A stretch of 60,876 bases of DNA, filler included, from Candidatus Zapsychrus exili (GTDB lineage Bacteria; Omnitrophota; Gorgyraeia; Zapsychrales; Zapsychraceae), in the NCBI GenBank assembly GCA_030765585.1. It is 8 parts of 8 records of this genome, joined end to end, with 100 filler letters (N's around TTAATTAATTAA, not from the genome) between each part and the next. Parts side by side here need not be neighbours in the genome. Positions count along the whole stretch, not along the records: positions 27,541 to 35,779 come from JAVCCJ010000011.1; 7 more parts are not named here. One strand, written 5' to 3'. Positions within the stretch are counted from its first letter, which is position 1. Each line of letters begins with the position of its first letter. The position numbers were made by a program, and so were the translations under genes. This document shows positions 27,441 through 35,990 of the stretch, one piece after another. The notes under the pieces were generated by a model. That model was not told the DNA's origin. It was given only the letters and a program-made list of their open reading frames with translations, and made no database searches.

Positions 27441-27621
27441 NNNNNNNNNNNNNNNNNNNNNNNNNNNNNNNNNNNNNNNNNNNNTTAATTAATTAANNNN
27501 NNNNNNNNNNNNNNNNNNNNNNNNNNNNNNNNNNNNNNNNCGTGATAAGTAAATTTTGGCAAGTCAAAAAATGCTTGTCAGATAAAACTTTTTAATCCGT
27601 AAAATAAAATGGCGGACGCGG

Positions 27622-27819
27622 TTGCAACCAATTCGAACCGCAGCCCAAATTACAGCCAGTATTAAGATATTACCTGTCAAACAACTCTCTTTATACCAAA
27701 AATTAGCCCAGAAAGCAACACAATTACGCCTTCTAGGCCTTCCTGTTAAAGAAATAGCTATAAGGTTAGAGGTTAGTAAAGGAACTGTTGAAAACGCCCT
27801 TAAATGGGAAGGGAGGTAA
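27622..27819 (+). CDS. small HTH protein
   Basis: LGLPVKEIAIRLEVSKGTVENAL helix-turn-helix; TTG start uncertain. Confidence 0.55.
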   Translation: MQPIRTAAQITASIKILPVKQLSLYQKLAQKATQLRLLGLPVKEIAIRLEVSKGTVENALKWEGR

Positions 27820-27822
27820 ACT

Positions 27823-28035
27823 ATGCACTGGCTATTCTATAATTCTCCACCAAAATACCCCATAGAGAAAAAAATATGGATCAAAATCCGATTCATCCAT
27901 GAAACCGACAAAGCTATTCTAGTTTATTGCAATGGCAGAAAGATTTGGATTCCTAAGGCGCGAATATATAAGATAAAGCTAAAGAAGGGTATTTTTGAGA
28001 TTTATATCAAGAAAAGCACTATATTGGATAAATAA
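27823..28035 (+). CDS. hypothetical protein
   Basis: GGAGG RBS; HETDKAILV...IWIPK motif seen in small phage/MGE proteins. Confidence 0.65.
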   Translation: MHWLFYNSPPKYPIEKKIWIKIRFIHETDKAILVYCNGRKIWIPKARIYKIKLKKGIFEIYIKKSTILDK

Positions 28036-28072
28036 ACAAGGAATCACCCTAATTTCTATCTATAACAAAAGT

Positions 28073-30079
28073 TTATAAACCTAATCTTCTAGCAATTTCC
28101 TTGGTTAGCTTTTTAAAATTACCCTCTGTGATTTTGTCTATTCTGCTCCCTCCGTTCAATATTCCTTTTAGAGTTTTGGCAACCCGCGTTTTACAAAACC
28201 CGATATCGAATTTTTCCTTAAAAATTTGTTCATAAAACCTTTCGATTTTAGAACCTGTTTTCTCGGGAAAATTTTTAATTTCTTGTTTCTTTTCCGGATA
28301 TGTTAATTTGACCGCTTCTGTATATAAGTCTTCACTAAATAAATCTGCCAATGCAAAATCGCTTGTTTTTTCAGGGAAAAGTCCACCAATCCCTATTATA
28401 TCTTTATCATCAATCCCTATAGCCTTCAACCCTGCAGTTATTTCTCTTCCTCCACTATCAGAATCCACAACGTTTATAAAGTTTAAACTTAACCCTTTGT
28501 AAATTTTAGCAATTTGATAGTCTTTGCTCTCAGCCAGACTACCATTTATAGAAATCTTATTACTTTTTCCGGTCGCAAATTTTCCCAACACCCCTTCAAG
28601 AATAGATTTATCAGCTTGTCCTTCAATTAAAATATTATACGTAGACGCCAGCAGGGAATACCCCACAGATGAACCGATAGCTGTCCGAAGTGGCTCTAAT
28701 AAATCAAAATCTTCTCCTCTCTTAACAATTTCGTTTGTTATTTTAGTCCCCTGATTATCTCCGAGAAGTTTAACTATTCTTATTTGTTCAGGTTTGAAAG
28801 GATCCACTAATGCAGGGGAATGAGTTACATATATAATTTGTGCATTTGTGGCTACTTTTTCCTCCAAAAATGTTTTAATATCTCTTTGTCCATCTACATG
28901 CAATTCTAATGCAGGGTTATCTAACAAAATGACAGTCGTAGCTGATGATGCACTTTCATTCTGAATAGTACTATAAAAAGAGAGATACCATTGAAAGCCG
29001 TCGCTTCTTTGTGATAGAGGTATACGATTTGTGTATGTACCATCGCTAATTGCTAAGGACAGCTGTTCCTTGTCAATTCTAAAATGGACTTCATATTTTT
29101 CTTGTGTCCAGAATTCATTTAATCCACCGGATATATGTCCTTTGTAATGGTCTTCAAAAACCTGAACATCAGAAACATTTACAGTTTTTGTTAATTCTTG
29201 TATTTTTTGTATAGATAATCCTGCAGTAGTACACAACTTTAACATGCCTATTGATGTTTTTTCAGGATTAGCAATAAATTCTGCTATTTTAACCGAATCC
29301 GGAATTTTATCTAATGCTGTACTATGGAAAATAAATCGTGGCAGTCTTTTGGTAAGATGTTTTGGTCTATCGCTCTGGTCTTCAGATAAAGTTTGATTTA
29401 TTTTACCCAAAATTTCTTCTGAACTTTTAGTTGCAGTAGCAATGTCTGCTTGGACAGCTTGGTCTTGTGCAGGTAGACCTCGTATACCCGTAGAAAATGT
29501 TTTTATTAAGTTGCTCACTTGTGCAGTCTCGGAGAATTTCGATCCAATAAAGCCATCTATCAGCTGTGTAATTTTGTCTTTATTTTTTGCAAATTCTTGA
29601 TTTCTCTCAGCATGTAAAATCAATTTCTTTTTTAATTCACTAACTGTTGACTTTAATTCCTCAATTTGTGTGGATATGTCAGGAAGGACAAATTGAACTT
29701 CAGCCTCTTTATCGTCCGCATCTATAGTAGTAAATTTATAATTGTTTCCAAAATATTTAACAGCTTTTAAATATTTAACATTATCGATACCCTTTATTAT
29801 GCTTGCAAGTTGGTCCTTATCGTCGTTTTTAAATTTTAACCATAAAGTAATCATTGGCACTTTTTCTTGTGGTTGCTTCTCCAGGGTGGGTCTTAAATGG
29901 CTTGATAAAATATCTGGCAAATATTTATAGTTTTGGTTAAATGACTGAAGGGCTTTTAGGAAGTTGCTTTTACCTTGTTCGTTTTTACCAATCAAAATAG
30001 TTAATTTTGGTTCAAGGTATACTTCGCCACTGTCAACAATGGATCTGAAATTTTGAATCCGAACTTTTATAATATTCAT
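28073..30079 (-). CDS. OLD-family-like ABC ATPase-TOPRIM nuclease
   Basis: IQNFRSI, Walker A GKNEQGKS, RSDGFQW, Walker B LLDNP, H-loop VTHSP, TOPRIM LIEG..D and DSD; GGAGG RBS. Confidence 0.85.
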   Translation of the reverse strand: MNIIKVRIQNFRSIVDSGEVYLEPKLTILIGKNEQGKSNFLKALQSFNQNYKYLPDILSSHLRPTLEKQPQEKVPMITLWLKFKNDDKDQLASIIKGIDNVKYLKAVKYFGNNYKFTTIDADDKEAEVQFVLPDISTQIEELKSTVSELKKKLILHAERNQEFAKNKDKITQLIDGFIGSKFSETAQVSNLIKTFSTGIRGLPAQDQAVQADIATATKSSEEILGKINQTLSEDQSDRPKHLTKRLPRFIFHSTALDKIPDSVKIAEFIANPEKTSIGMLKLCTTAGLSIQKIQELTKTVNVSDVQVFEDHYKGHISGGLNEFWTQEKYEVHFRIDKEQLSLAISDGTYTNRIPLSQRSDGFQWYLSFYSTIQNESASSATTVILLDNPALELHVDGQRDIKTFLEEKVATNAQIIYVTHSPALVDPFKPEQIRIVKLLGDNQGTKITNEIVKRGEDFDLLEPLRTAIGSSVGYSLLASTYNILIEGQADKSILEGVLGKFATGKSNKISINGSLAESKDYQIAKIYKGLSLNFINVVDSDSGGREITAGLKAIGIDDKDIIGIGGLFPEKTSDFALADLFSEDLYTEAVKLTYPEKKQEIKNFPEKTGSKIERFYEQIFKEKFDIGFCKTRVAKTLKGILNGGSRIDKITEGNFKKLTKEIARRLGL

Positions 30080-30239
30080 TGTTTACCTCCACATAAAAAA
30101 TTATTAAATTTACCCAAATCACCTTATTAATAAAAAGGGGCAACTCCTTTTTATTTGCACCGTCTCCATTTGTCTATATATACCTCTGTTATGAAGAAAA
30201 ATCAAGAGGTTTTTGGGGGAAAGGATTCGATCTTCTCCT

Positions 30240-31385
30240 TCACTCCCCATACCCTTCTAAATCATTAAATGCGGCTTTGATTGTTGATAGATTAACATTA
30301 AAGCGTTTGGCCATGGCGGTTTTTGATATGGAATATAAGTCTTTTCCTTCCTCTTTAAGCAAGGCCTGGATTAAAAAAAGAAACTTTAGGCGCATAGTCA
30401 ATTTGGCATTATCCGGCTGAATAAGTGAATCTGAGGATATAGCCAGGGTATCGCCGGAAATGTCTGTAAGTATAACACTTGCATCCCGGCTATGGAAAAA
30501 GCTTACCTCAATAAGTTGATAGCGTTTTTTCAGTTTTTTTAAGCTTTTAATTACTTGCCTCCTTAAAGCGCTATGCGTCCATGAATCAGGCATACCTAAG
30601 CTTAAAGCCATGGCTTCCAAGCCGATTAAGAACTCCTGTTTACCTGTAGCCTGGCTATGAGCTAAAAGCAATAGATAAAGATCCATAGCCCGTTCATCAC
30701 GACTGGTAACCATAAGAGAAAGATATTTTTTATTCAATAAAAACTCTTCAGGCAAGTTTAAACTTTTAGGTAGGTTTTCTATGTAAGCCGAAGTATAAAT
30801 CTTTTCACTACGCGGTGTCGAAGATATAAGAAAGTTCCTAAGGCGTAACAATTTTACTTGGGCCAAATCCCGAGAATCAATAAGCGTAGAAGATTCAAAA
30901 TTATTCTTCAGGGCTGAAATAGACCAATTAGCACTGCCTTCAACTATATATCGGCTATCAACTACTATAAGCTTATCGTGAAGCCTGCGATTAGAGGGTA
31001 TAAAATGAATAAGGACTCCAGCTTTCTCCAATTCCTTAAAAATAGGACTCTGGACAAAAGCGATTCCACCTTTCTTAGAATTTTTGAAGCGGGTATTAAG
31101 ATATAGTGTAACTTCAACGCCTCTTTCCCTTGCTTCCAACAAATCATTAAGCAAAAGCCTTACCGGATTGTTAGTATTTGTCCCTAAACTTATGGAATAC
31201 ATAGAAATATCTATGGATTTTTGGGCATTATCTAAAAGCCCAATTACAGCTTGCTCGTAGCTGCGATCTGATATATCTTTAACTCGGGAAGAAACAAAAT
31301 CATCTGCGGAGCCTACGGCATGGGTAAGTAAAGATATTGTGAGAATTAATATAGAAAATAGGTAGAATTTATTTTTCTTCGTCAT
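30240..31385 (-). CDS. single-HKD phospholipase D/Nuc-like domain fused to helical/wHTH-like regions
   Basis: N-terminal hydrophobic signal, LHDKLIVVD...GSANWS..NFE; C-terminal SKTAMAKRFNVNLSTIKAA HTH. Confidence 0.8.
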   Translation of the reverse strand: MTKKNKFYLFSILILTISLLTHAVGSADDFVSSRVKDISDRSYEQAVIGLLDNAQKSIDISMYSISLGTNTNNPVRLLLNDLLEARERGVEVTLYLNTRFKNSKKGGIAFVQSPIFKELEKAGVLIHFIPSNRRLHDKLIVVDSRYIVEGSANWSISALKNNFESSTLIDSRDLAQVKLLRLRNFLISSTPRSEKIYTSAYIENLPKSLNLPEEFLLNKKYLSLMVTSRDERAMDLYLLLLAHSQATGKQEFLIGLEAMALSLGMPDSWTHSALRRQVIKSLKKLKKRYQLIEVSFFHSRDASVILTDISGDTLAISSDSLIQPDNAKLTMRLKFLFLIQALLKEEGKDLYSISKTAMAKRFNVNLSTIKAAFNDLEGYGE

Positions 31386-31412
31386 TTGAAGTGCGCTTGG
31401 GTTCTGTTTATT

Positions 31413-32288
31413 TTAAAAGGGAGTTGATCCCTTTATTCCTTTATTGACCCCTTTATTCTTTTTATTAATTTTCTTTTTTAATGATTCATACGGCTGTTTA
31501 ACAAAATTAGGCATTTCGTTAGTAGAAAAGTTTTCAACTGCTTCATAAATTTTTTTGTAACATTCAAATTCCTCTACATTAAATCTACTATTTGCGTGTA
31601 ACCAATTTAAATTGGAAAAAACTTCACCCAGACGTTTTAGAAAATTCCCTCGAAAAACCTTCTCTGACCCTGAGCCAGCAAAAATTACGATATTAGAAGG
31701 ATATCTTGGAATTTGGAATATATATTCTCCCATTTTTCTTGAACTAATATTATTTTGAGTAATTGAACACAATGAATACAATAGCTCAAGTGTCTTATCT
31801 AATTCTTCTGTTTCAAAAGAGGCTGTAATTTCTATAAGTTTTGGAAATTTCAATGTGAATTGTCTATTTCCATTTTGAATAAAATATTCTGTATTGGGAA
31901 TAATCGCATTATTATACAGCTCAATTTGTAATTTATTAGGGATTCCTTTATAGGAAAAGAAAATCGGAATATATTCTCCAGAATATATAGTTAATTTTAA
32001 GTTTTTTTGTTCCACTACACCAATAAAAAAGGGAAGTTCGAGAGATTCTAAATGTTGAATTTTATCAGTTATATCAATTTTGTCAGCATTACTTTTTATT
32101 TGAATTGCAAAGGAATTTTTGGGAAGAATATATTTTTGATTTTTTCTTTCTATAAGGGTACAAAAGAAATCAATACCGATGTCATCTCCTATTGAAGTAG
32201 GTTGTGCCACGAATGAAAATCTAGAAAGAATATACCTGGCCAAATTTTCATTTTCCCAACCTTTCCTGATATATGTTAAATGTGCCAT
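31413..32288 (-). CDS. DUF4365-like PD-(D/E)xK nuclease-domain protein
   Basis: GWENE..A, DIGIDFFC, FAIQIKS. Confidence 0.65.
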   Translation of the reverse strand: MAHLTYIRKGWENENLARYILSRFSFVAQPTSIGDDIGIDFFCTLIERKNQKYILPKNSFAIQIKSNADKIDITDKIQHLESLELPFFIGVVEQKNLKLTIYSGEYIPIFFSYKGIPNKLQIELYNNAIIPNTEYFIQNGNRQFTLKFPKLIEITASFETEELDKTLELLYSLCSITQNNISSRKMGEYIFQIPRYPSNIVIFAGSGSEKVFRGNFLKRLGEVFSNLNWLHANSRFNVEEFECYKKIYEAVENFSTNEMPNFVKQPYESLKKKINKKNKGVNKGIKGSTPF

Positions 32289-32301
32289 TATTTACTTTCT
32301 C

Positions 32302-32366
32302 GCGTAACGCTTGAGCTCAGCCGCATTTTTGCGTAGCAAAAATGTCCGCTGGAGCGAATTATCTGA
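32302..32366 (-). other. integron attC-like recombination site (R'' box degenerate)
   Basis: Minus strand AATTC-GCTCCAGC-GGAC..hairpin..GCG-GCTGAGC-TCAAGC-GTTACGC right after the HEPN stop and 13 nt before the next ATG. Confidence 0.7.
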
Positions 32367-32368
32367 TT

Positions 32369-33124
32369 TTATTCTATATTATCAATAAAATCCTTCATTG
32401 CTTTGATTGTCGGTAAAACTTTTTTATATTTATCAATAACATTATCTAGTTCTGCGCTAAGACTTTTGCACGAATAATCCAAATATATAAAGGGTAAGCC
32501 ATTTGCCCCCAATGAATTTGAAACCTTTCCTTCAATCTTCATATTGCGCATAGGAGAGCTTTTGCCATGTGATATCTCATTGCGATCGTCAGCAGCTTTC
32601 TTGCGATATTCTATGTATTTTTGCAGTTCCTCAAGATAAGGATTTTGGGTGTATCTAGAATTTTTATGTAAAGCAGAAATAGTCTGGGAGAAATATTGTT
32701 TTCTGAATTGTTTTTCTGAAAGGTTGGGAAAACAAACATGCATAAGAACATTGTTTATTCTCTCCCAACATCTATACACACATTCATGTGAGGTATATAC
32801 ATAATACCAAAAATAAATTTCAGGCATTTTTATATTGGGGACATCCTTTTCATGCAAAGCAATACCTTGTATCCCATCAATGAATTCACATTCTTGCAGA
32901 GCAATTAGCATATGCCCCAAAGAAAGCTGGACATGCCCCATACTCCAAAATAATTCAGTAACAGTTTGTCTAAAATTTTTTTCATCTAATTTAAAATGAA
33001 TAGCAACATTTTTGGACCATACCTGAAGATTTTTTATCGGGAGATTTTTTGTTATGGCAGGAATTTTATATTTGTCAAACAATTGGTTAATTTCTTTTTG
33101 AATTGTATCAATATTTATATTCAT
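32369..33124 (-). CDS. HEPN-domain protein (Cthe_2314-like)
   Basis: All-helical with RNEISH (Rx4H); ATG 33124 preferred because the ORF-track start lies inside a repeat. Confidence 0.7.
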   Translation of the reverse strand: MNINIDTIQKEINQLFDKYKIPAITKNLPIKNLQVWSKNVAIHFKLDEKNFRQTVTELFWSMGHVQLSLGHMLIALQECEFIDGIQGIALHEKDVPNIKMPEIYFWYYVYTSHECVYRCWERINNVLMHVCFPNLSEKQFRKQYFSQTISALHKNSRYTQNPYLEELQKYIEYRKKAADDRNEISHGKSSPMRNMKIEGKVSNSLGANGLPFIYLDYSCKSLSAELDNVIDKYKKVLPTIKAMKDFIDNIE

Positions 33125-33141
33125 TTTTATATAAGAGTTCT

Positions 33142-33181
33142 GGGGACGTATCACTTAATTCGAGATAAGTGTTCTGTCCCC
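33142..33181. repeat. GGGGAC...GTCCCC palindromic unit (R1)
   Basis: GGGGAC-gtat-CACTTA-N8-TAAGTG-ttct-GTCCCC; left arm resembles R2-R4. Confidence 0.65.
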
Positions 33182-33214
33182 CGAATTACTGTCTAAAATA
33201 ATTTTGAATTTCTA

Positions 33215-33514
33215 TCAGTTGTTTTTTAGACAACTACGATAGCTAAAATCCTCAACGCTACCATCTGTCCTAATTATATAAAAACATCTAGTGTTAGCCC
33301 ACTTTTTATTTTTTCTAACTCTAAATTCTTTTATACCACAACCTACCTTTTCTTTGTTGTCAGAATGACGCTTCAGAAGCTCTGATATAAAATTAAAATC
33401 CTCTTTTGTTAATTTTCCATTAAGATTATATTTATTTAAAATTGATCTAATAAATCTAATAGCGTCCTTTTGAGTATCAAATTTTTTCCCTGCAATAATA
33501 TATATCTTAGTCAC
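33215..33514 (-). CDS. DCL/DUF3223 family protein
   Basis: LLKRH...KVGCGI...RCFYIIRTDGSVEDFSYRSC; GGAGG RBS with GTG start. Confidence 0.85.
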   Translation of the reverse strand: MTKIYIIAGKKFDTQKDAIRFIRSILNKYNLNGKLTKEDFNFISELLKRHSDNKEKVGCGIKEFRVRKNKKWANTRCFYIIRTDGSVEDFSYRSCLKNN

Positions 33515-33587
33515 TTCTTACCCCTCCTTCAAGTTAATAGTGCTTCAGGATTGGCTTTAATCTTTTTACTGGTCGATTCTTACGAAT

Positions 33588-33637
33588 CCCGAAGGCACAA
33601 TACTTAATTACTTTAAAATAGAATCGGCTCCTTTTCC
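33588..33637. repeat. intergenic ~45-bp direct repeat (R2)
   Basis: GGCACAATACTTAATTACTTTAAAATAGAATCGGCTCCTTTT. Confidence 0.85.
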
Positions 33638-33672
33638 TTTTTTGCGATACTAAAAGCTGTTTTGCCTTTTTC

Positions 33673-33816
33673 TTAAGAAGATTTCTTTTTGCTTGGTGAA
33701 TGATAACTAGCGACACTGCTAAATTTTCCTTTTGAAATCCTCACACCCTCTTTTTTAGCTTTTTCCCTAAGTCCTTTACACCTTTTATCTGGTTTTCCAA
33801 CTTTTGCCATCGTCAT
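33673..33816 (-). CDS. 47-aa basic peptide not in the ORF track
   Basis: AAGGAGG-N3-ATG; MTMAKVGKPDKRCKGLREKAKKEGVRISKGKFSSVASYHSPSKKKSS; lies wholly between R3 and R2. Confidence 0.6.
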   Translation of the reverse strand: MTMAKVGKPDKRCKGLREKAKKEGVRISKGKFSSVASYHSPSKKKSS

Positions 33817-33859
33817 TTACCTCCTTAGATTTTTCATCCCTTTATTGGAACACGAAATT

Positions 33860-33909
33860 CTGGGAAACATAATACTTAATTACTTAAAAATAGAAGCGTC
33901 TCTTTTTCC
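33860..33909. repeat. intergenic ~45-bp direct repeat (R3)
   Basis: GGAAACATAATACTTAATTACTTAAAAATAGAAGCGTCTCTTTTT. Confidence 0.85.
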
Positions 33910-33968
33910 ATAGTCTTTTTATTAATTCTTCATCAGAAAGGTCTACGTTGTTCACAAAAACTTGCAAA

Positions 33969-34715
33969 TCACAGATGCTTATGGGAATCAGCGATAAATC
34001 GTCCCACAGAAGCAAAGACTTCGAGAAAATTTTCTGGAGATGCTTGTTTACCATAATGGACAATTTTATTCCGAGTTTGCTGACATAAGAAGAATTCGTC
34101 GTCCTTCATCTTTTTTAATTTTTTAAGTTCTTTCTCGTTGATTCTTTCGCCAAGACTATTCCAAATTCCAAGCTTTTTCCACATCTCAAAGTAATCTCTG
34201 ACTATCGGCCTTTTATCAATAAGAATGAGATCGATAATGCCTTCTTCAACTCGTCTCTCCTGAAGTTGCCTACGGATTTGATAAGAAAGATACACTTCTA
34301 AGGCCGTATAAATTTTAACAACTGCAGAACTGAGATCATACAAGAAAGCGGGCAATGGCTTCGTAGGTTCGCTTTCGTCAGCCTCGAAATACAAACAGAT
34401 ATCCCGATCCTGACTTACCAATAGAGCATGCAGATATCCATCCAAGAAATGAAGCTGAAAGATTTTCATTAATTCTCGAAATTTGGGGATTTCCCCATAA
34501 GTTTCATCAGCGTCTCGATACACCCCCTTTTGTTCCGTAATACAGTCCGGACAATCCCAATTGCTCAAACTCGCAGTAATTTCAATTGCGTTAAAGGCGT
34601 CCTCTCTACTCTTGTGTCCACAATTCGGACAAGTATAATCAATTTCCCAATTTAATGATTTTTTAATCTCTTCGGATACTACTTTAAATTTTTCTTTAAA
34701 TTGCTCATTAGTCAT
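33969..34715 (-). CDS. Zn-ribbon plus HEPN-like protein
   Basis: CPNC...CPDC; C-terminal RNKIVH (Rx4H); GAGGTG RBS before ATG near 34715. Confidence 0.65.
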   Translation of the reverse strand: MTNEQFKEKFKVVSEEIKKSLNWEIDYTCPNCGHKSREDAFNAIEITASLSNWDCPDCITEQKGVYRDADETYGEIPKFRELMKIFQLHFLDGYLHALLVSQDRDICLYFEADESEPTKPLPAFLYDLSSAVVKIYTALEVYLSYQIRRQLQERRVEEGIIDLILIDKRPIVRDYFEMWKKLGIWNSLGERINEKELKKLKKMKDDEFFLCQQTRNKIVHYGKQASPENFLEVFASVGRFIADSHKHL

Positions 34716-34819
34716 TATTATCACCTCTGTTAAACTCCACAAGTCACTTTGTTATTCATCAGCATCAAAATCGCCTTTTACGACGTTAGGCAATATCTAT
34801 AGATCTTACTGTTCGCAAT

Positions 34820-34868
34820 CGAGGAACATAATACTTAATTACTTTAAAATAGAAGCATCCCCTATTTT
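34820..34868. repeat. intergenic ~45-bp direct repeat (R4)
   Basis: GAGGAACATAATACTTAATTACTTTAAAATAGAAGCATCCCCTATTTT; contains the RusA stop codon. Confidence 0.85.
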
Positions 34869-35233
34869 ACATTTATAGGCAGAATTTCTAGATTAACACC
34901 ACAATCCTTATTGCAATTGACCTTTGACTTCACAGCATTCAAAGAGATTATACACGAATCTTTTTCCGGAGATTCAGAAAAAATAGTTTTGTTTAAAGCA
35001 TCACATAGCCTTTTTAATAAGTTATCCAGGTCTGGTCCAAAAGGAAAATTTTTAGGAAATTTATCAGCGGGTAATAGAAAGGTTACCTTCATCATGCAGG
35101 CCTCTTTTATTTTAGGTAATCCTTCAGTTTGCCTGGTTACATCTTGTGTCCATTCCTCTGTAGCTTGAATTTTCCCACGCGCTTTATTCTTACTGTAGGG
35201 TATGCCTTTAATTCTTATAGTCATTACTTTCAT
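34862..35233 (-). CDS. RusA-family Holliday junction resolvase-like nuclease
   Basis: G.PYSK, PDLDNLLKRLCDAL...D motif; GAGGAG RBS. Confidence 0.8.
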   Translation of the reverse strand: MKVMTIRIKGIPYSKNKARGKIQATEEWTQDVTRQTEGLPKIKEACMMKVTFLLPADKFPKNFPFGPDLDNLLKRLCDALNKTIFSESPEKDSCIISLNAVKSKVNCNKDCGVNLEILPINVK

Positions 35234-35369
35234 TATTCTCCTCTCAAAAGTTTTGAACTAATCAGACAAAGTTGAAGGTACGATTCTTTCTTTATTATTA
35301 ATTATACACCAAGGTGTCACAGACGAACAATGATTTTAGCGTGTCCTAGGTAGCATTCTCATTATTCAA

Positions 35370-35779
35370 CTATCCTCTTGGCCTGTATATTTCCTCAAAA
35401 AGCCCTATCTCTTTTCCTTCAGGGGTCATTATTACCGTAATATCGTAAGCTCCGTCGTCAGCCCCTCTTCTGACTATTAAATAGCCATAATATTCCTCTT
35501 CCTTATCCTCGATAATCTTAACTGATTCACCCCAATGAAGCCATCTATCATTAGATCCGTCGGCATTTACAGAATGAATAGCATGAGTGGTTACACATCC
35601 TGGCTGACAGGCATAATATATTTTACTGCCATCAGGTGAAAAACAAAGGCTGTAAAACCAGCCTCTGTTTTCTTTTGTATCAACCCCTTTTTTGTAATAA
35701 CTTTTTAATAAAACCTTGGACTCTCCATTATTTACATCTATTGTCCATATTTCATAGGGGCTCCAATTGCCATATTCAA
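35370..35779 (-). CDS. TolB/PD40-like beta-propeller protein, C-terminal fragment (not in ORF track)
   Basis: Open frame from contig edge: YEIWTIDVNNG...FSPDGSKIYY...IHSVNADGS, stop TAG at 35370. Confidence 0.55.
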
Positions 35780-35899
35780 NNNNNNNNNNNNNNNNNNNNN
35801 NNNNNNNNNNNNNNNNNNNNNNNTTAATTAATTAANNNNNNNNNNNNNNNNNNNNNNNNNNNNNNNNNNNNNNNNNNNNAGGCACCTGCAATCCATATC

Positions 35900-35983
35900 T
35901 GTCATTGCGAGCGAGGCGCAAGCCGAGCGCGGCAATCTCATACCAAACTAGATTGCTTCGTCGCTTTGCTCCTCGCAATGACA
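35900..35983. repeat. palindromic element TGTCATTGCGAG...CTCGCAATGACA, copy 1
   Basis: Terminal inverted repeats with internal GCAATC/GATTGC; other copies at 37444 and 46215. Confidence 0.85.
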
Positions 35984-35990
35984 AATAAAA

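Follow-up and report, generated by a model that had tools for sequence, protein, structure and literature searches.

Short repeats punctuate a run of small genes on one contig of Candidatus Zapsychrus exili (Omnitrophota; GCA_030765585.1), and an original prediction had read them as the sites of a new, integron-like cassette system. To judge from their sequence, three of these repeats (R2–R4) are decayed copies of a conserved 41-bp unit that would be an empty hybrid TIRtron, in which ends of two transposase clades adjoin each other. The reading towards which we lean, with modest confidence, is that this non-autonomous unit was spread by TIRYT transposases, that neighbouring DNA was trimmed in the process and that loose shuffling of genes was a by-product. 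TIRtrons are Y1/HUH transposase genes between inverted ends with the consensus GGGGWSAS, and such ends are also met apart from the gene, either paired as dimers or in clusters (Di Nocera et al. 2013, PMC3733652; this and the other published sources are cited to the extent of their accessible text). Their transposases, the TIRYTs, correspond to TnpA subclass 2.1 of Quentin et al. 2018 (PMC6006769); they are a large TnpA-Y1 group for which the accessible text of both papers describes neither activity nor cargo.

The window, i.e. the whole stretch of 60,876 nucleotides that was analysed, consists of 8 contigs joined by N linkers, and the finding concerns one of them, the 8239-bp contig C118 (window positions 27541–35779). 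The genome (G000) is a 2.04-Mb draft of 129 contigs, 96% complete. Below, G labels denote genomes, L labels the loci examined and C labels contigs. Open reading frames (ORFs) were called with a simple longest-ORF script; gene counts may be off by one in a few intervals.

The repeat unit and its relation to transposase ends

The repeats as such proved real. R2, R3 and R4 are pairwise 81–88% alike over 42 nt, and each was scored against a consensus of the 41-nt core derived from 63 copies (Table 1). These copies lie on 33 of the 38 loci scanned; the reversed consensus gave no match at 14 or fewer mismatches in the same loci (509 kb). A 29-nt pattern was present in 9 of 401 genomes of the phylum, all of one class (reversed control, 0), and the core pattern of the hybrid in 25 of 401 genomes of the class, against 1 control match (both counts include G000). 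Copies were met in arrays and also alone, in tandem and between core genes. Within G000 the family is clustered, with about 10 copies on 4 of the 129 contigs (C118, C102, C124 and C111). The exact hybrid pattern had no match in viral contigs.

Conservation runs from about 5 bases before the core to 6 bases after it, which makes a unit of about 52 bp. Non-hybrid sites recovered with the left part as seed stop at columns 16–17, and those recovered with the right part start at columns 22–23; because non-hybrid sites end at these inner borders, the unit was divided into half A (columns 1–17), a 4-nt linker and half B (columns 22–47). Half A equals both ends of the Y1 genes at L233 and L248 (17/17) and matches those at L115 (16/17), and half B recurs at both ends of L252 (25 and 24 of 26) and L246 (24 and 23 of 26), with looser matches flanking L232 and L244. 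A tree of 23 Y1 proteins places the three A-ended and the four B-ended ones in separate groups (support 97/94 and 96/94). According to the alignment these proteins retain the HUH motif and the catalytic tyrosine; they match PF01797, and NF047646 scores of the end-flanked Y1 proteins are 65–77, just below the cut-off of 80. The fit to GGGGWSAS is 8/8 for half B and 7/8 for half A. The halves are therefore those of transposase ends, the type of end tracks the protein clade and the same junction recurs across many families. The units R1–R4 are empty (no transposase gene lies between their ends), the consensus has no GTAG foot and the A+B hybrid folds weakly (z −1.3). Further mixed pairs of left and right ends occur in C102, L262 and L270.

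Other variants of these ends were recorded. Two mini-TIRtrons (L227:18718–19035 and L228:3197–3520), with relatives in G284 and G481, consist of an 82-amino acid truncated Y1 between intact B′-type ends. At L270:68–140, L265:10007–10070, the right end of L252 and L266:1997–2049 the outer tip of the B end is repeated in short tandem copies, possibly the footprint of repeated cutting there. In three genomes a second small palindromic element occupies the same spot inside half B (L264:3650–3690, L278:1493–1533 and L267:10009–10050).

Spacing, orientation and cargo of the arrays

The repeats are polarised: copies are co-oriented on all 13 multi-copy contigs, and among 55 copies with both flanks available, 49 have both neighbouring genes on the repeat strand and 1 has both on the opposite strand. 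Such a fixed orientation to transcription could suggest host regulatory sites between genes (protein-binding sites, or parts of terminators or promoters). We regard this as very improbable given the patchy presence of the repeats (25 of 401 genomes), their identity to transposase ends, their clipping of genes and the weak fold of the hybrid. The co-orientation of the genes, which had been put forward as a mark of the array, is true but belongs to the background, since 1254 of 1344 ORFs (93%) on the larger G000 contigs are on the contig's majority strand and 1174 of 1282 neighbouring genes are co-directional. In 31 of 32 loci the unit shares its strand with the majority of the genes, so that replication bias fits its orientation as well as a cassette logic does. 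Codon skew was tried as a means of separating replication polarity from transcription polarity and was uninformative, nearly all genes sharing one strand.

The claimed one-to-one alternation of genes and repeats stands for C118, where each of the seven gaps from the RusA gene to the ATPase gene is occupied, by six transposase-end-like elements and one attC-like hairpin (in the order R4, R3, R2, R1, attC-like hairpin, H2, H1). It does not stand across arrays: 30 intervals between successive copies contain no gene in 3 cases (tandem pairs), one gene in 12, two in 9, three in 5 and four in 1, so that 15 are multi-gene.

These figures bear on a dedicated, integrase-free cassette system, in which a gene and its downstream end would leave as a single-stranded circle, be inserted by a TIRYT behind another end and be kept as a selected stockpile. 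Besides the filled gaps of the window, the contig G414:C102 has three successive one-gene intervals, and the order of genes varies (PLD–repeat–RAMA nuclease in G274 and RAMA nuclease–repeat–PLD in G537). The Y1 gene at L250:1190–1940 has C-type ends on both sides in direct and not inverted orientation, which gives it the look of a gene-plus-end module in its own right. On the other side, 12 one-gene intervals of 30 is near the expectation of dense random filling, lone and tandem copies occur, the arrays are linked to no enzyme and a repeat is near the PLD gene in only 3 of 132 loci (among the 132 are the locus of the window itself, L107, and L055, which duplicates L278). A repeat follows one type I R gene in two genomes but is missing behind it in a third, and the ends are inconsistent where an MFS gene moves among four genomes. 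The island backbone shared by G000:C102 (L012:5314–10404) and G172:C3 (L362:8002–16917), which comprises type I restriction genes, RadC, a SIR2-HerA-like pair recognized by eye and a small gene, is present in G172:C3 without an array; its repeat-punctuated tail occurs only in G000. On balance we consider such a system possible but rather doubtful.

Arrays sit after ssrA or in islands that also carry serine recombinases, restriction systems and att-like ends. About half of the 75 flanking proteins scanned have no Pfam family. Among the remainder are restriction and helicase subunits, NucS, Mrr, AbiU2-HEPN, ThsB-TIR and SieB, and also TPR proteins, a methyltransferase, a protease and products of core genes; the cargo is accessory and partly defensive. 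Lone copies were found in G117 and, between core genes, in G099 (one copy lies between atpE-tRNA and nifU).

Two side observations concern such settings. A near-identical repeat with a 30-nt leader precedes two different NucS-like genes in G000 (L012:13579–13660 and L014:1176–1253). In G063, ssrA is split near its 3′ end by about 660 bases (L288:950–1630) with an ORF that carries what we take to be a LAGLIDADG-like motif.

The strand bias, the lone and tandem copies, the serine recombinases and att-like ends of the islands and the one attC-like relic in the window would also suit passive gap filling, whereby a unit similar to miniature inverted-repeat transposable elements (MITEs) and BIMEs (bacterial interspersed mosaic elements) enters AT-rich island gaps on one replication strand and has no role in gene movement. 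On this view the genes would have come first, and by other means (islands of serine or tyrosine recombinases, or integron cassettes). This is an improbable account of the data, as base-level indels start and stop at the ends and recent block ends are enriched at end motifs (both described below). Moreover, no clean empty site was found for a lone copy: searches of G172 and G099 revealed none at base level, the available relatives being too distant.

Gene gains and losses at the ends

The gap between ssrA and an amidase gene is empty in the closed genome G466 and also in G473, G247, G107 and G537; G414, which is congeneric with G466, has 9 copies over two contigs that face this gap. The last module in G414 (641 bp, two small genes) is enclosed by a pair of direct copies and splits the amidase promoter from the start codon, which are adjacent in G466 and in G503. 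A TAA is common to both junctions of this insert.

A second comparison involves G122:C16 and G284:C37, which belong to different genera and have smpB regions that are just 71% alike, yet share blocks that are 98% identical. In G122 an H-type end is followed directly by a Fic gene with a C-type end; the corresponding H-type end in G284 is empty. Conversely, G284 has an extra small gene with its end, and also a 135-bp toxin-gene stub with a C end behind a B end. The Fic and small-gene indels are exactly a gene plus its downstream end, as the cassette system described above would have it. Island modules 98% identical between two genera were also noted at L227:7682–14230 and L345:2155–7952, with borders at several transposase end types.

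Signs of trimming accompany the units. Comparison of loci that are 99.6% identical shows the left end of an A-type element against one gene at two different points, about 100 bases from each other. In some genomes type I R and PLD genes extend into the hybrid, their natural stop lost; a resolvase on C124 is reduced to a stub and 9 of 60 upstream ORFs stop inside the unit.

The prediction that gain and loss breakpoints would fall at the repeats was borne out for some events. Among blocks of at least 97% identity, 8 of 16 ends have an end motif no more than 30 nt away, compared with a null mean of 2.5 and a maximum of 7 over 1000 draws. For all blocks from 282 loci the count was 21 of 79, compared with 8.3 under an intergenic null (maximum 16 in 500 draws).

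We suggest the following course of events, which is modelled on E. coli TnpAREP, an enzyme that cuts single-stranded DNA outside REPs (repetitive extragenic palindromes) at a distance and transfers strands (PMC3333891, accessible text). (i) The left end of an A-clade TIRYT element would have been joined by four bases to the right end of a B-clade element; this hybrid would have formed once and then spread as the ~52-bp unit (41-bp core plus short flanks). (ii) A TIRYT, supplied in trans or by an earlier host, would nick single-stranded DNA a few bases outside the ends, and the nicked strand would be rejoined at a second nick. (iii) Rejoining would copy the unit into nearby gaps on one strand and delete adjacent DNA. 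(iv) Where the second nick falls beside the next co-oriented end, a module of gene(s) and downstream end would move and land behind another end. (v) Polarised, repeat-punctuated runs of accessory genes would accumulate in islands and in ssrA/tRNA hot spots. Gene shuffling would then be a real but loose by-product and not the work of a dedicated one-gene-one-site defence platform. Nicking outside the ends, local spread, trimming of neighbours and module transfer are inferred here by analogy; that the repeats mobilise genes at all is probable.

Several observations weigh against this course of events. The right-hand copy of the G414 insert is cut inside half B, at odds with cutting on the outer side. 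Of the 8 near-motif breakpoints, one genome pair (G122/G284) accounts for 4, a TIRtron's own ends for 2 and a short tandem repeat for 1; taking all 79 block ends together, 58 lie away from any motif. The clearest examples of a gene with its end have ends of types C, H and B instead of the A+B hybrid. The assembled contigs of 4 runs showed neither a circle nor a strain variant of C118. In the 401 genomes no DNA-level homologue of the window cargo besides PLD was found, the first look having scored only 2 candidates per genome. As for enzymes, no A- or B-clade transposase was found in the 96% complete draft of G000 (best matches 40% and 37% identity), and G274 and G172 gave no Y1 match.

Searches for near-identical cargo (that of the window in 401 genomes, that of the C102 and G274 arrays in 43 genomes each), which at first look scored 2–6 candidates per genome, matched only PLD, RadC, recombinase and one nuclease gene. 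Cut sites could not be mapped from partial copies: the halves end at their natural inner borders and a few truncations fall at columns 29–35 with no sharp peak, the search patterns having favoured the core of the unit. That no fixed cut site emerges speaks against the dedicated cassette system as well. Two junctions were set aside as probably due to repeats of other organisms: an R2–R3 joint skipping 242 and not 272 bases (28-base side), and an R3–H2 joint present in all 4 runs.

Contig C118, its enzymes and related systems

Gene order from RusA to the 291-amino acid gene is as originally described (Table 1), and Pfam matches support the RusA, DUF3223, PLD and ATPase assignments. As claimed, the RusA stop reaches into R4, of which it overlaps the first base; since 123 amino acids is the commonest length among the 120 homologues listed, RusA is not clipped. 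The label HEPN holds for the 251-amino acid protein; for the Zn-ribbon protein the CxxC pairs and the RxxxxH motif are there, but the Atlas link to HEPN is lead-level only (0.83, 16% of members). The label DUF4365 found no match for the 291-amino acid protein in Pfam, PADLOC or NCBIfam.

R1 had been taken for the intact form of R2–R4. Its GGGGAC...GTCCCC ends are indeed intact; however, it shares with the others only the type of its right half (23/26 to a TIRtron end in L246), the left half being different (21/22 to the mini-TIRtron end in L227). The attC-like element is a hairpin but degenerate, and its 5′ end is without the AAC of the usual attC core motif. H1 and H2, which flank the PLD gene and had been seen as loosely related to R1–R4, are end-like, H1 with an A-like left end, but resemble further end types. 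The H2 motif is that of the end at the Fic insertion site in G122/G284 and also occurs near the Y1 loci L242 and L248; no cognate Y1 gene was found for the H1/H2 type, though similar ends occur near Y1 loci. An Rfam scan of the contig gave no match. Beyond C118, at window positions 35895–35985, there is a second, unrelated hairpin repeat family that is spread over many G000 contigs.

Table 1. Elements and genes of contig C118 (window coordinates)
Feature	Position	Strand	Remarks
RusA-family nuclease, 123 aa, full length	34862–35233	−	PF05866, E 3e-7; 343 homologues
R4	34822–34862	−	Decayed A+B hybrid of two TIRYT-type ends; 36/41 to consensus, A half 15/17, B half 17/20
Zn-ribbon protein with RxxxxH motif, possible HEPN	33969–34715	−	Lead only
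R3	33863–33903	−	Decayed A+B hybrid; 34/41 to consensus
47-aa basic peptide, good ribosome-binding site	33673–33816	−	Matches no family
R2	33591–33631	−	Decayed A+B hybrid; 35/41 to consensus
DUF3223 protein, PADLOC HamC2-like	33215–33514	−	PF11523, E 1e-27; PADLOC E 7e-29
R1	33142–33181	−	Different empty hybrid: B′-type left end + B-type right end; fold z −3.4
Cthe_2314-like HEPN protein, 251 aa	32369–33124	−	Atlas 0.96, TM 0.71
attC-like hairpin, degenerate	32302–32364	−	Unrelated to the repeats; fold z −3.1
291-aa protein, PD-(D/E)xK-like motif by eye	31413–32288	−	DUF4365 label not confirmed
H2	31410–31457	−	H-type end-like hairpin + partial tandem copy; contains stop of 291-aa gene
Signal peptide + PLD nuclease domain + helical/HTH (helix-turn-helix) C-terminus	30240–31385	−	Frequent island passenger
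H1	30128–30169	−	Degenerate A-like left end + inverted H-type end, by sequence inspection; fold z −2.9
ABC-type ATPase, OLD/AriA-like	28073–30079	−	Pfam match; PADLOC scan
Two small ORFs typical of island ends	27622–28035	+	Also edge arrays in G274, G284 and G525

A REP-associated HUH (Y1) enzyme acting in trans had been proposed, and the absence of a Y1 transposase from C118 was confirmed; any action would therefore have to be in trans. The proposal gains from the finding that the halves are ends of Y1/HUH genes in other genomes of the class and loses from the lack of a cognate gene in G000. G000 does have four Y1-type ORFs, on C49, C33 (two) and C65, one of them above the NCBIfam REP-transposase cut-off; they were dropped as cognate enzymes after three of the loci were scored and found without A or B ends. 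A search of 8 other genomes with the repeat detected Y1 genes in 6; those with A or B ends are in G284, G122, G180 and G339.

PLD nucleases can transesterify, and the PLD-HTH protein was considered as the recombinase. Its gene is on exactly the 4 of 129 G000 contigs that bear the repeat, and also in arrays of G274, G525, G495 and G537. However, the signal peptide is kept in 33 of 33 aligned members, the repeat is rarely near PLD loci (see above), the array contigs of G414 have no PLD-HTH gene and the repeat halves belong to Y1 genes. Following a survey of homologues, 157 loci and a structure model, this candidate was rejected as scarcely credible; we read the protein as a common island passenger. 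The family (L028–L079 and L107–L184; 177 homologues, of which the named ones are all from Omnitrophota) combines a single intact HKD PLD domain of Nuc/Zucchini-like type with a C-terminus that is helical and HTH-like, and has four copies in G000 (window, C102, C111 and C124). An exported nuclease (the signal peptide is predicted) with DNA-binding-like domains is an odd combination. A protein of 55–70 amino acids without a Pfam family often abuts the PLD gene (L123:1721–1894 and 13 other PLD loci).

Integrons and CALINs carry attC cassette arrays, that is, polarised site-gene-site runs. The arrays described here resemble them in being polarised runs of small unrelated genes with indels of a gene plus its downstream site. 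They differ in that R2–R4 are not attC and lack the long-hairpin fold (there is a single degenerate attC-like relic), in that no integron integrase scored above the TIGR02249 cut-off in the 96% complete G000 draft, and in their loose spacing, with boundaries that look fixed in G122/G284 and are variable elsewhere. IS200/IS605 and the one-ended capture of IS91/ISCR use HUH chemistry on single-stranded DNA, with a possible replication-strand bias. They have one fixed and one variable boundary, as here; the ends and enzymes differ.

The closest relatives are the TIRtrons, in which the same sequence forms an inverted pair around a Y1/HUH gene and whose GGGGWSAS-type ends also occur away from it. 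Unlike in a complete TIRtron, no transposase gene lies between the ends here; the dimer is a conserved unit built from the ends of two different transposase clades, it occurs in accessory islands only and gene indels are marked by ends related to it, cargo movement not being described for TIRtrons in the accessible text of PMC3733652 and PMC6006769. With E. coli BIMEs, REPtrons and REPINs the unit shares two unlike inverted units with a short linker and a transposase acting in trans on single-stranded DNA (PMC3333891, accessible text). It differs in having no GTAG foot and a weak hairpin, and in its few copies with genes, not linkers, between them, as opposed to hundreds genome-wide. TnpAREP of subclass 2.1 beside prochlorosin genes has likewise been proposed as a diversifier of neighbouring accessory genes; that work concerns one gene family, an authors' note withdraws the causal claim and its accessible text reports no breakpoints at end repeats (bioRxiv 10.1101/2020.03.09.984088). 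No description of HUH- or RAYT-driven cassette arrays, of a cross-clade hybrid or of end-bounded gene indels was found in the literature searched, which left most subscription papers outside its scope. Thus the claim of a new repeat-based system has to be narrowed: the ends are of a known kind, the repeat family having been described as TIRtron ends, and it is the cross-clade A+B hybrid and the end-bounded gene indels that appear, within the literature searched, to be new.

The ends may help to shuffle accessory genes, but no proven integron-like system emerges. For the proposed integron-like defence stockpile it counts that breakpoints at such ends do exist; against it stand the loose spacing, the lone and tandem copies, the many non-defence neighbours and an orientation confounded by strand bias, and a dedicated stockpile is no more than possible. 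The 41-bp hybrid offers a defined substrate; together with the two cognate enzyme clades and natural indels resolved to the base, it makes gene movement by TIRYTs experimentally approachable. We tentatively raise the wider idea, itself unlikely, that TIRYTs and orphan ends form a widespread integrase-free cassette system that works through circles of a gene plus its downstream end, with the A+B hybrid as the attC-like site of the ssrA/tRNA arrays of Omnitrophota. If this were true, cassette arrays could arise in bacteria by a second route that needs no integrase, and the repeat would serve as a search tag for accessory and defence genes.

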